DNA from: an uncultured virus (IMG/VR IMGVR_UViG_3300034279_001265)
Taxonomy: Duplodnaviria > Heunggongvirae > Uroviricota > Caudoviricetes
Strand: one strand, 5' to 3'
IMG/VR virus record: IMGVR_UViG_3300034279_001265
Length of the DNA stretch: 20,000 nucleotides
Both the position numbers and the translations under genes were made by a program. The notes beneath the pieces were generated by a model. It had not been told where the DNA came from, searched no databases, and worked only from the letters and a program-made list of their open reading frames with translations. Positions 18,614-20,000 of this stretch are shown here, in pieces; position 1 is the stretch's first letter; the number at the start of each line of letters is the position of its first letter.

Positions 18614-18709
18614 AGTCAGGTGGCGGAATGGTAAACGCTCGCTTCAAGGTGCGGTCAGTCAACGAAATGTAAAACTGACTTGCAGGTTCGAATCCTGTCC
18701 TGACTACCA
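18614..18709 (+). tRNA. tRNA-Leu-like RNA with aberrant anticodon arm (possibly non-decoding)
   Basis: Acceptor AGTCAGG/CCTGACT + A + CCA; Leu-type D arm GCG-GAATGGTAAA-CGC; T arm GCAGG-TTCGAAT-CCTGT; anticodon stem only 3-4 bp with 8-nt loop TTCAAGGT; long variable arm GTCAGT/ACTGAC. Confidence 0.75.
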
Positions 18710-19116: not shown

Positions 19117-19120
19117 ACGC

Positions 19121-19175
19121 GGCAAGTGCAAGGTGTCTGGTTTCTCATACCCAGGCACCTCACTTGTTGTTTTTT
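19121..19175 (+). terminator. Rho-independent terminator ending the ncRNA island
   Basis: GGCAAGTG-CA-AGGTGTCTGG / CCAGGCACCT-CACTTGTT followed by GTTTTTT. Confidence 0.7.
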
Positions 19176-19216
19176 AAAACTTATTTGATATTAACTTTAC
19201 AACTTAAATTTTAATT

Positions 19217-19423
19217 ATGAAAAAACTTTTTGTTTTTATCACAATCATCTTGACAATTGGTTGTGAAAATAATCGTCCGTATAAAGTTGTAAATGTAAAC
19301 AGCTTGAACGACAGTACTTGTAAGTATGTATTGTCACGATCTAATGGATTTGGTCCACAAGTCAAAACTATGACAGCACCATGCGGGAAGTACACACTTT
19401 TCCAAACCATAAACGAAAAATGA
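19217..19423 (+). CDS. Small putative lipoprotein
   Basis: MKKLFVFITIILTIG|C lipoprotein-type signal; AT-rich leader. Confidence 0.65.
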   Translation: MKKLFVFITIILTIGCENNRPYKVVNVNSLNDSTCKYVLSRSNGFGPQVKTMTAPCGKYTLFQTINEK

Positions 19424-19704
19424 CAAGAGAAAAATTTATAAAAAAGTGGCTTGGTAATAAAGACTACCAATACACAGAAGAAAACCGAGATTTAATGCGA
19501 GATGATTTAGACAAAGTGATAAACCGAGCATTGCAACAACCACTTGTTGGCGGTTCGTTGCCGATGTACGATGTTGAAGAATTGAATGAAATTGTAAAAG
19601 AACTGAATAGTGGGAAACTCTCTCTGTTTGATTTTGTAGGTAAAGTTTGGAACAAAGCTTATATACTCGGATGTATTGATGGGTTGAAAGGCAATGACCA
19701 CTAA
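19420..19704 (+). CDS. Hypothetical protein spanning a GTT repeat site (cassette-like gene 1)
   Basis: ATG 19420 overlaps the TGA of the previous gene; contains LVGGSLP encoded by the repeat; stop TAA lies inside CACTAAC. Confidence 0.7.
   Translation: MTREKFIKKWLGNKDYQYTEENRDLMRDDLDKVINRALQQPLVGGSLPMYDVEELNEIVKELNSGKLSLFDFVGKVWNKAYILGCIDGLKGNDH
19546..19562 (+). repeat. Cassette-start half-site GTTGGCGGTTCGTTGCC
   Basis: 15 of 16 nt identical to 19825-19840 and an imperfect inverted repeat of 19690-19705. Confidence 0.75.
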
Positions 19705-19840
19705 CGGTTTGCGTATTGCTGACGTTGCCAATTTGAAAAACAAATGTTGAATACTTAAATAAAAGTTGATATGAAAATTGAAGTTAAAATTACCGATGAA
19801 GCTGGCAATGTTCAGCAATACGATGTTAGCGGTTCGTTGC
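19690..19840. repeat. attC-like imperfect inverted-repeat site
   Basis: GCAATGACCACTAAC-ggtttg-CGTATTGCTGA-CGTTGCCA ...72 nt... TGGCAATG-T-TCAGCAATACG-at-GTTAGCGGTTCGTTGC; AAC/GTT cores, asymmetric spacer, single extrahelical base. Confidence 0.7.
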
Positions 19841-19968
19841 TATTGGATGATAGCAAATTGAAACAACTAATATGGGAAGATTGGGAAGGTGAAATTAAAG
19901 AGGAAGACCCAAGACAAATGGTTTTTAAGTATATGAAAATGATGCGTAGTGAGTTTGTTAAGAATTGA
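19771..19968 (+). CDS. Hypothetical protein starting inside the attC-like loop (cassette-like gene 2)
   Basis: 65 aa; contains DVSGSLL encoded by the repeat; stop TGA lies inside AATTGACCGCTAAC. Confidence 0.7.
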   Translation: MKIEVKITDEAGNVQQYDVSGSLLLDDSKLKQLIWEDWEGEIKEEDPRQMVFKYMKMMRSEFVKN

Positions 19969-19976
19969 CCGCTAAC
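19963..19976 (+). repeat. Cassette-end half-site AATTGACCGCTAAC (next site truncated by the window edge)
   Basis: Its reverse complement GTTAGCGGTCAATT matches the first 9 nt of 19825-19838 exactly; similar to 19692-19705. Confidence 0.7.
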
Positions 19977-20000
19977 TCGTTTATTTGTCCAGTTTTCCTT

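Follow-up and report, generated by a model that had tools for sequence, protein, structure and literature searches.

Near the end of a 20,000-nt stretch of DNA from an uncultured tailed phage (IMG/VR record IMGVR_UViG_3300034279_001265), here called the window and corresponding to positions 41733–61732 of a single virus record of 121,380 nt (G000:C1), two short coding segments follow one another, each opening with a start motif (S) and closing with an end motif (E), the names used for all cassette comparisons below. The window reads half-site S1, body 1, a full attC-like site extending from E1 to S2, body 2 and half-site E2. This tract is probably a two-cassette remnant of an integron-like system common to Bacteroidota chromosomes and phages, carried here by a crAss-like freshwater phage without a recombinase. 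The feature is real, and an integron-like reading of it is supported, with corrections. An integron-like cassette array in a phage was the original prediction, made from the letters of the window alone; what stands of it are the attC-type junction and the complementarity of cassette ends, and the corrections are that the array ends here, that host chromosomes share the system, that this phage has no recombinase and that the sites depart from the canonical IntI and attC hallmarks.

With up to three mismatches allowed, the 16-nt start motif has three matches in the window, two of them exact, where 0.10 would be expected, and none of 200 shuffled sequences reached three. The exact start motif and the exact 10-nt core of the end motif each occur at only these two places in the 121,380-nt genome. 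The start motifs lie at 19546 and 19825, and their imperfect inverses, AATGACCACTAAC and AATTGACCGCTAAC, end at 19705 and 19976 and contain a TAA and a TGA stop codon respectively, all as predicted. Folded as single-stranded DNA (ssDNA), positions 19680–19850 reach -24.2 kcal/mol, compared with -14.2 +/- 2.7 for shuffled sequences (z -3.75, 0/200 as good). The outer stem pairs 19691–19705 with 19825–19840 and holds one unpaired base; further in, an 11-bp stem (19712–19722 with 19812–19822) is separated by a 1x2 mismatch loop from a 7-bp stem (19724–19730 with 19803–19809). The full site consists, in order, of the E1 outer arm, the AAC core, a spacer, the inner stem, a 72-nt loop, the inner stem again, the GTT core and the S2 outer arm. 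The long hairpin that had been foreseen is there with its cores, spacer, stems and loop, as are its departures from canonical form, namely a spacer that is asymmetric (6 x 2) and pairing that extends 12–13 nt outside the cores. It is the only TAAC...GTTA hairpin at or below -20 kcal/mol in the genome (19691–19840). S1 pairs with E1 and S2 with E2, the two ends of each cassette being complementary. S1 has no convincing 5' partner upstream, the sole candidate being a weak 74% arm at 19253–19275, and E2 has no hairpin partner downstream (fold z +0.71; 75 of 100 shuffles fold as well). The array had been expected to continue past base 20000, an expectation that fails given that the genome holds no further S or E motif, that there is one full site and that E2 is unpartnered.

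Viral contigs were scanned for the exact start motif, which was found in at least 118 stretches. Those listed include 97 with a G+C content below 0.45, and among the matches listed 86 of these 97 have E (up to three mismatches) 50–450 nt downstream on the same strand. In the same listed matches S and E flank more than 80 unrelated coding bodies, and the 69 distinct cassettes picked by S alone have every position of GCAATGACCGCTAAC conserved at 93–100% while the sequence flanking the E motif carries almost no information. Picked the other way, by E alone, 100 distinct contexts contain S exactly in 51, one base off in 10 and two to five bases off in 6; it was not found in 33, several of which are high-G+C chance matches. 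The 83 distinct units running from S to E measure 65–448 nt (median 166), and the open reading frame (ORF) in the frame of S ends in 44 of them at the TAA of E, in 26 at the TGA of E, which lies in a different frame, and in the other 13 at some other point. A T at -1 and an A at -7 before S are each present in 71 of 73 cases and fall on third positions of variable codons. The bodies are coding, with a ratio of nonsynonymous to synonymous divergence (dN/dS) of 0.05–0.13 in six of seven homologous pairs and 0.44 in one; body dS between homologs is 0.5–2.4, while the S and E arms are unchanged.

Leaders, upstream of S, and bodies, downstream of it, occur in varying combinations. Clustering of 85 units gave 55 leader families and 67 body families; three of the six multi-member leader families join two or more body families, and six of the 13 multi-member body families join two or more leader families. 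In a BLAST search with 19201–20000, one viral locus (L094) is alike over 19544–19705 only, from S1 to E1, at 79.6% nucleotide identity, and the homology of five others (L036, L040, L052, L091 and L109) stops exactly at 19840, the last base of S2. These homologies to other phages end exactly at S or E, as expected of the cassette shuffling that had been proposed. Six homologs of the hairpin interior share 19702–19840 and diverge on both sides, and in L038 compensatory changes on both arms preserve the inner stem. No neighbouring gene family recurs in more than 7 of 53 loci, a methyltransferase family being the commonest (7/53).

The pairing partners of the motifs lie in the sites rather than across the bodies. 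S pairs with an upstream arm made of an E-like sequence and a 20–25-nt extension that covaries with the last codons of the leader; the duplex of S with its own upstream region has an energy of -35.7 kcal/mol, compared with -26.4 kcal/mol for the upstream regions of other loci (p 4e-13, 67 leaders), and by alignment score the same comparison gives p 4e-20. E in turn pairs with a downstream arm ending ...T GTTA... (p 1e-11, 73 units). Of the phage hairpins that end in S, 23 of 36 are 139–153 nt long. S and E are the cassette-specific outer arms of one very common allele. Two other ideas about the motifs were tried and dropped: a long-range S:E stem closing each body, for which no covariation extends beyond one extra pair, inward or outward, and use of the ATG within E as the start of the downstream gene, its ORFs having only 4–59 codons (median about 15).

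A covariance model (R2) was built from 40 distinct hairpins of three Bacteroidales arrays only, and its 28 pairs were derived from column pairing because the automatic RNAalifold structure held only 7 pairs. Against the phage genome (130,380 nt) this model returned one match, 19691–19840 (L001 2691–2840, + strand), at 47.1 bits and E 7.8e-10, covering model positions 1–149 of 149; the next matches had E values of 2.5 and 4.6. In 80 viral loci (538 kb) it gave 143 matches at E <=0.001, often five to nine per locus, and arrays of such sites with other arm alleles are common in phage contigs. The search for more hairpins that had been suggested as a check thus found none further in this phage and many in viral contigs. 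The members of the family are 144–153 nt long with invariant AACG...TGTT cores; AACG and GTT are invariant in the 40 bacterial sites, in which the T at -1 and the A at -7 are nearly invariant also. The hairpin of the window has 150 nt, AACG at 19703–19706, TGTT at 19824–19827 and A at 19818 (-7), and its asymmetric spacer recurs in bacterial and phage sites. The linked IntI/Xer-like recombinase that also characterizes the family is not present in this phage genome.

Cutting and joining of cassettes at the AAC/GTT core predicts that the 12 nt beyond the cores are complementary to those of the adjacent site and not to those across their own hairpin, which is what the arrays show. In bacterial arrays 8.15 of 12 positions match between the 3' arm of a site and the 5' arm of its successor, compared with 5.21 for the two arms of the same site (p 1.4e-5) and 4.88 for other pairs (p 3.8e-10). 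In phage arrays with alleles other than S the adjacent arms match at 8.17 of 12, and nine or more matches are reached by 36 of 60 adjacent pairs, as opposed to 2 of 117 pairs of own arms and 0.9% of random pairs. The 15–16-nt outer arms belong to the cassette, not to the hairpin.

The original prediction spoke of a distinct system of Bacteroidota phages, a restriction that does not hold, as the site family is found in Bacteroidota chromosomes too, beside an IntI/Xer-like recombinase. The start 16-mer is widespread among Bacteroidota assemblies (Chitinophagaceae, Saprospirales, Cytophagales, Bacteroidales, Flavobacterium, Chryseobacterium and others), with E downstream of S in only 8 of 120 bacterial loci. 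In the remaining bacterial loci S forms the 3' arm of a roughly 150-nt hairpin placed after the stop codon of unrelated accessory genes and on the opposite strand; the genes before the hairpins include KilA-N, DUF1706, LinB-like nucleotidyltransferase, GNAT, RibD_C and NmrA genes, and the number of site copies per genome is low (1–8). On one Bacteroidales contig (G001:C16) 17 co-oriented hairpins of 148–151 nt are spread between 146 and 180 kb (34 kb), and the array ends at an UpxY-family antiterminator and a tyrosine recombinase whose best match in the PDB is VchIntIA (2A3V, E 6e-36). The integron-integrase model TIGR02249 matches this recombinase in two stretches, skipping model positions 177–238, and exceeds its cut-off in none of five host genomes. 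Homologs of the recombinase (E <=1e-40) are present in 74 of 151 sampled genomes of the same order. In five of eight retrieved recombinase loci the contig stops after no more than 3.7 kb, and in G012 and G040 10 and 8 hairpins lie directly downstream of the homologous recombinase; three 20-kb control regions contain 0, 1 and 1 hairpins, and in G102, where the recombinase is a paralog of 53% identity, there are none in the 20 kb downstream. The arrays that adjoin the recombinase are accordingly those of three Bacteroidales genomes, G001, G012 and G040. A search for a recombinase in phage or host, which had also been suggested, therefore came out negative for this phage and positive for these arrays. 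Recombinase homologs of 37–44% identity also lie 0.2–2.4 kb from S/E cassettes in four viral contigs, and one is encoded in a fifth. A tyrosine recombinase beside a site in L250 was not counted as an integron platform, since it belongs to a 2.44-kb element of which a region rich in insertion sequences holds three identical copies.

Several further observations concern these bacterial loci. The UpxY-family (NusG-like) antiterminator (L378 16376–16888, G001:C16) lies between the recombinase and the first cassette and could let transcription read through the many hairpins. A 308-aa ORF without a family match (L378 17755–18681) directly precedes the 272-aa recombinase frame of G001, and close homologs elsewhere are single open frames of 450–600 aa; judging by these frame lengths the recombinase probably has a long N-terminal domain, which in G001 would be interrupted by a split or a frameshift. 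In G119:C21, G147:C98, G099:C18, G112:C26 and G133:C25 the contigs end 0.1–3 kb past the recombinase, as would be expected if repetitive hairpin arrays interrupt assembly there. A tract of KilA-N, DUF1706 and lincosamide-nucleotidyltransferase-like genes is bounded by these hairpins (L271 4615–5382; also in L250, L302, L346 and L361) and has identical flanks in several Bacteroidales assemblies, so that a resistance-type gene travels in the cassette system. In a Chryseobacterium assembly a fragment of an IS91-family (Y2) transposase (L286 1103–1648) lies 1.4 kb from a hairpin site.

Strand and reading frame distinguish the phage sites from the bacterial ones. In 42 of 52 phage hairpins the strand that carries S has the better fold of the two, and in the best stems G-T pairs outnumber A-C mismatches by 38:14 (15 phage stems) and 36:12 (12 bacterial stems). 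Bacterial cassette genes lie on the strand opposite the folding strand, which for that reason corresponds to the integron 'bottom strand', whereas phage genes lie on the folding strand. Of 23 phage hairpins near 150 nt in length, 19 have a loop ATG that opens the V-S-G-S-L frame and three have one that opens the +1 frame; no loop ATG in the V-S-G-S-L frame was found in 17 bacterial hairpins. In 62 of 96 distinct full-size phage sites an ATG within the site opens an ORF that continues at least 25 codons past it, although for some of these genes the true start may lie further on, the in-site ATG being an in-frame codon upstream of it; a further 31 have an ORF that starts at most 80 nt downstream, and one has an opposite-strand ORF only. 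The GTT is read as a codon in 43 phage sites, in phase 2 in 18 and in phase 1, which would read TAG in GTTAG, in one. An upstream ORF of at least 40 codons ends within the 5' arm in 62 of the 96 sites, 29 of them at the TAA of TAAC. That attC-like sites lie within reading frames, a further claim made from the window, is borne out by these in-site starts and 5'-arm stops.

The same architecture can be followed through the parts of the tract itself (Table 1). The gene of cassette 1 passes through S1 as V-G-G-S-L and has its TAA stop at 19702–19704, within E1; comparison of body 1 with its homolog in L094 gives a dN/dS of 0.115, indicating purifying selection. S2 is read V-S-G-S-L and is preceded by the family-invariant T at -1 and A at -7. 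Neither cassette protein matches a Pfam or PHROGs family. The loop of the full site contains an A/T-rich motif, AATTTGAAAAACAAATGTT (19730–19748), that by its letters is a putative promoter; the 19-nt motif recurs with 95% identity at L001 4148–4166, directly at the start codon of another small gene, and related motifs, ATTTGAAACAC, are found in the loops of other phage sites. It may be a phage promoter or a translation-start signal.

Table 1. Parts of the two-cassette tract, in window positions.
Feature	Position	Strand	Remarks
Cassette-1 gene	19381..19704	+	107 aa (ATG 19381) or 94 aa (ATG 19420)
S1 half-site, 3' outer arm GTTGGCGGTTCGTTGC	19546..19561	+	junction of leader and body 1
Body 1, coding cargo of cassette 1	19562..19690	+	homolog in L094
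Full attC-like hairpin, 150 nt	19691..19840	+	fold, hairpin scan, covariance model
E1, 5' outer arm and AAC core GCAATGACCACTAAC	19691..19705	+	TAA of gene 1; invariant G next
Unpaired spacer GGTTTG	19706..19711	+	opposite AT 19823–19824
5' inner stem	19712..19730	+	fold; paired changes in L038
72-nt loop	19731..19802	+	promoter-like motif; start codon of gene 2 at 19771
Cassette-2 gene, 65 aa	19771..19968	+	starts in loop of site; TGA 19966–19968 in E2
3' inner stem	19803..19822	+	also codons 11–17 of gene 2
S2, GTT core and 3' outer arm GTTAGCGGTTCGTTGC	19825..19840	+	junction of leader and body 2
E2 terminal half-site GAATTGACCGCTAAC	19962..19976	+	end of two-cassette tract

Leaders and bodies thus reassort at S, and bodies and the sites that follow them at E, and phage genes start in the loop or just after a site, pass through its 3' arm and stop in the next 5' arm. 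In the explanation that we favour, a tyrosine recombinase of IntI/Xer-like type, provided in trans by the host or by a second phage infecting the same cell, would carry out the exchange at the AAC/GTT core of the folded single strand. Further crossovers would probably come from short-homology recombination between the identical 15–16-mers, and the site would double as an expression module with its promoter-like loop, start codon and leader. A bolder form of this explanation, possible but put forward tentatively, is that the phage site is a combined exchange and expression module whose loop would supply a putative promoter, a start codon and a leader of about 15–30 codons, and whose fixed GTT phase would fuse any leader to any body in frame, the 5' arm of the next site offering a stop in two frames; this would amount to DNA-level exon shuffling by a non-IntI integron-like system between Bacteroidota chromosomes and lytic phages.

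A number of findings weigh against the integron-like explanation. In the phage genome the hairpin scan and the covariance model agree on a single full site, and no tyrosine recombinase was found there by Pfam search of 128 ORFs of at least 70 aa or by tblastn (best match E 0.11). Where a recombinase does adjoin the arrays, in G001, it falls below the cut-offs of both integron-integrase models (217 bits, cut-off 220, for NF040815; 204.7 bits, cut-off 265, for TIGR02249) and, judging by the two matched stretches, is about 43 residues short where IntI has its specific domain. The allele cores CGCTAAC/GTTAGCG do not fit the integron consensus RYYYAAC/GTTRRRY. Both E and S are junctions, as opposed to the single crossover point per site of a classical integron; other-strand recombination, or recombination between the 15–16-mers by way of the phage AAA_24 and PD-(D/E)XK proteins, could account for the double junctions. 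In phages the better-folding strand is also the mRNA strand, and a role in RNA is inseparable from one in DNA here. Finally, the contigs of four sequencing runs were aligned to the tract, and no joint at an S or E core is among the 15 joints inspected, 28 further joints lying outside that number; contigs of three runs span both cassettes with at most four changes, no recombination was observed, and the aligned contigs include no excision product.

The same contigs do vary beside the tract. Contigs of runs X14, X18 and X19 leave the reference 12 nt after E2 (L001 2971–2988, window 19971–19988) and continue for 184–252 letters unlike it, and in X18 and X19 others follow the reference, so that natural populations differ just past the terminal half-site. 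In run X20 body 2 has no cover, a gap from which no conclusion is drawn. Joints that skip about 2,182 nt between the tRNA-like stretches flanking the tract have sides of only 25–27 letters and very high depth, and may stem from the tRNAs of other organisms.

Other explanations have to be weighed against this one. The least unlikely among them, though still an improbable one, treats S and E as portable-homology linkers that are swapped by phage or host homologous recombination between co-infecting phages, much as in the regulatory cassettes with promoter and stem-loop of T4-type phages, the hairpin being mainly an expression element and no site-specific enzyme taking part. Linkers of this kind would fit with junctions at both S and E, with the free reassortment of leaders and bodies, with a genome that has an AAA_24 (Sak4-like) ATPase, two PD-(D/E)XK nucleases and a SegE-like GIY-YIG endonuclease and no site-specific recombinase, with a promoter-like motif and a start codon in the loop, and with neighbouring gene families that never recur in more than 7 of 53 loci. 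Homology alone, however, leaves unexplained why S and E are inverted copies of each other, why the AACG/TGTT cores and the A at -7 stay invariant across differing arm alleles, why arrays lie beside a specific recombinase family in bacteria and some phages, and why phages and bacteria have a strand bias in common. More doubtful again is a purely RNA-level function, in which the hairpin would serve processing, stability or translation control in a polycistronic mRNA, with its start codon in the open loop and a trans-acting RNA-binding factor. The better fold of the sense strand (42/52), the excess of G-U-type pairs over A-C mismatches, the compensatory changes in homologs and the start codon inside 62 of 96 phage sites would all be expected of such an RNA; but the strand bias is present in bacteria too, where the folding strand is not that of the genes, the outer arms are complementary to those of adjacent sites, as a history of recombination predicts and an RNA helix does not, and Rfam 15, run over six loci at E <=1, matched tRNAs only, leaving the hairpin without a match.

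Two simpler accounts have very little to recommend them. That the motifs are no more than peptides, V-S-G-S-L and G-N-D-R, of one small phage protein family would agree with the single frame that the start motif keeps across S-type sites (15/15) and with the purifying selection on bodies, and it is next to impossible to reconcile with the two frames in which E is used (44 TAA, 26 TGA), with the rare serine codons AGC and TCG fixed in S, with S being exact in 51 of 100 contexts picked by E, with invariant bases at third codon positions of variable amino acids, or with copies of the 16-mer that lie antisense to, and after, unrelated bacterial genes; the two E frames, the exact S in contexts picked by E, the third-position invariants and the bacterial antisense copies led to its rejection. 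There is just as little chance of a miniature inverted-repeat transposon or a repetitive extragenic palindromic element (REP or REPIN) with S and E as terminal inverted repeats. The 15–16-nt inverted repeats around a short unit (median 166 nt) do suggest one, yet the interiors are unrelated, the copies number 1–8 per bacterial genome and two in this phage, no transposase or REP-associated tyrosine transposase (RAYT) was seen by Pfam among the phage ORFs, and the flanks have no duplication, covariation or information. REP and REPIN elements number tens to hundreds per genome and are accompanied by a cognate RAYT, and this candidate was dropped on counts of 1–11 matches (up to two mismatches) in five genomes, compared with 0–4 for a control, and two copies in the phage; the miniature transposon was dropped on the 67 unrelated body families among 85 units. 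A diversity-generating retroelement was also discarded, there being no second long repeat copy. The integron-like explanation remains the one that we regard as probable.

The genome in which the tract resides was annotated by Pfam search of its 128 ORFs of at least 70 aa, which revealed a crAss-type capsid, tail-ring proteins 1 and 2, and replication and nucleotide-metabolism genes, in addition to the SegE-like GIY-YIG endonuclease, the two PD-(D/E)XK nucleases and the AAA_24 (Sak4-like) ATPase; no integrase, HUH enzyme or transposase was found in this search. At least 75% of the sampled words of the tract are present in contigs of 20 runs from 14 lake and fresh-water studies. With 4 kb around the tract as query, the cassettes had no blastn match in 50,697 phage records, and the matches were restricted to neighbouring genes and a tRNA-like stretch. 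The latter is a tRNA-like gene of 96 nt at 18614–18709, for which ARAGORN gives a four-base anticodon, caag, and assigns no amino acid, and which the Rfam tRNA model scores at 41.3 bits. A second, uncalled copy lies 2.1 kb downstream and outside the window (L001 3713–3851, window numbering 20713–20851), marked by direct repeats of 21 nt at 90% and 28 nt at 93% identity, and the cassette tract is therefore flanked on both sides by tRNA-like stretches. A G+C-rich inverted repeat followed by a T run at 19118–19176 looks by eye like an intrinsic terminator and is located just 5' of a small lipoprotein-like ORF (19217–19423). Two adjacent downstream ORFs (L001 5806–6666 and 6670–7005) have in common a C-terminal peptide module, ...WQ.ERMYSEEEV...EWFEQF.KK, which suggests another kind of module among the small genes of the region. 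Elsewhere the phage encodes a protein with a Tad2-like anti-Thoeris domain (L242 14243–14572) and a 1,393-aa protein with an AAA_33/zeta-toxin-like kinase domain (L244 14162–18343), both identified by Pfam.

The classical attC site is an imperfect palindrome with AAC...GTT cores, an unpaired spacer and a variable loop, and a stop codon often lies in its 5' core. Classical integrons include sedentary chromosomal ones with long, homogeneous attC sites, such as the Vibrio repeats. The sites described here resemble them in being folded imperfect palindromes with AAC...GTT, an unpaired spacer that may correspond to the classical one, a variable loop and, often, a stop codon in the 5' core; in forming co-oriented arrays that adjoin a tyrosine recombinase whose best solved relative is VchIntIA; in having cassette ends that are complementary to each other and not to the other arm of their own site; and in folding better on one strand, which in bacteria is antisense to the cassette genes. 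They differ in their length of 144–153 nt, in pairing 12–13 nt outside the cores, in an asymmetric 6 x 2 spacer, in a recombinase that scores below integron-integrase cut-offs and is some 43 residues short at the IntI-specific domain, in phage genes that lie on the folding strand, start in or just after the site and read through its 3' arm, and in junctions at both cores. The attC consensus is given as G|TTRRRY at the core, with a preference for the bottom strand, in PMC9892861. The full site in the window has CACTAAC/GTTAGCG, which departs from the 7-nt consensus, and other sites in the G001 array fit it (for example GCCTAAC/GTTAGGC). Nor does the tract qualify as a complete integron, there being no adjacent IntI with the additional domain in this genome, or as a cluster of attC sites lacking an integrase (CALIN), which in the usage of Qi et al. 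2023 calls for at least two predicted attC sites within 3 kb: it has one full site and two half-sites, counted without a classical attC predictor.

Integron cassettes in phages have been reported before. Qi et al. 2023 describe attC clusters without an integrase in virulent phages, including Polaribacter phage P12002L, with sites predicted by classical attC models, of which five/six recombined with IntI1, and DNA methyltransferases as frequent cargo of phage CALINs (PMC9892861). The cassettes described here have in common with those the attC-type sites, the absence of an integrase from the phage and methyltransferase neighbours. In PMC9892861 sites inside reading frames are unmentioned, and 'bacteroid', 'flavobacter' and 'crass' have 0 occurrences. 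Bacteroidota are among the phyla with integrons according to reviews (PMC8618304; bioRxiv 10.1101/2022.02.06.479319). No published description of the motif or of the site family was found in full-text searches that extended to the text, as distinct from the supplements, of PMC9892861, the latter possibly listing more phage CALINs. The genome of P12002L has no S or E motif at up to two mismatches and no exact 9-nt core.

Integrons are usually seen as the gene-capture devices of bacteria, with IntI and canonical attC as their defining marks; this case points to a parallel system, with a recombinase that lacks the IntI hallmark and with 150-nt sites common to Bacteroidota chromosomes and many phages, among them a crAss-like lytic phage common in lakes, the phage genes being written through the recombination site. 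If the mechanism holds, it would be a concrete way, open to testing, in which small accessory genes of phages turn over quickly and genes pass between phage and host, and standard integron finders would be missing a whole class of cassettes. The conserved 16-mer and 15-mer are ready probes for such cassettes in metagenomes.

Two phage systems invite comparison as well. The promoter–stem-loop (PeSL) cassettes of T4-type phages, which Arbiol et al. are said to have described in 2010, reportedly place a promoter and a stem-loop before small accessory genes, at shuffling boundaries. The sites described here likewise combine a putative promoter with a conserved stem-loop before small accessory genes and form a modular shuffling boundary in a plastic region of a phage genome; PeSLs, however, reportedly act by homologous recombination and lack the AAC/GTT core logic, the end complementarity and the tyrosine recombinase, and they are intergenic, whereas the sites here are part of the reading frame. 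The attP of CTX-phi is a folded ssDNA hairpin with two inverted half-sites about 90 nt apart, used by the host XerCD. Inverted half-sites in one strand and, on the reading favoured here, an Xer-type recombinase not encoded by the phage are features of both; CTX-phi differs in integrating its whole genome at dif, with no cassettes or arrays. The window's own contribution lies in genes that are written through the site and in an S/E allele of very wide conservation.

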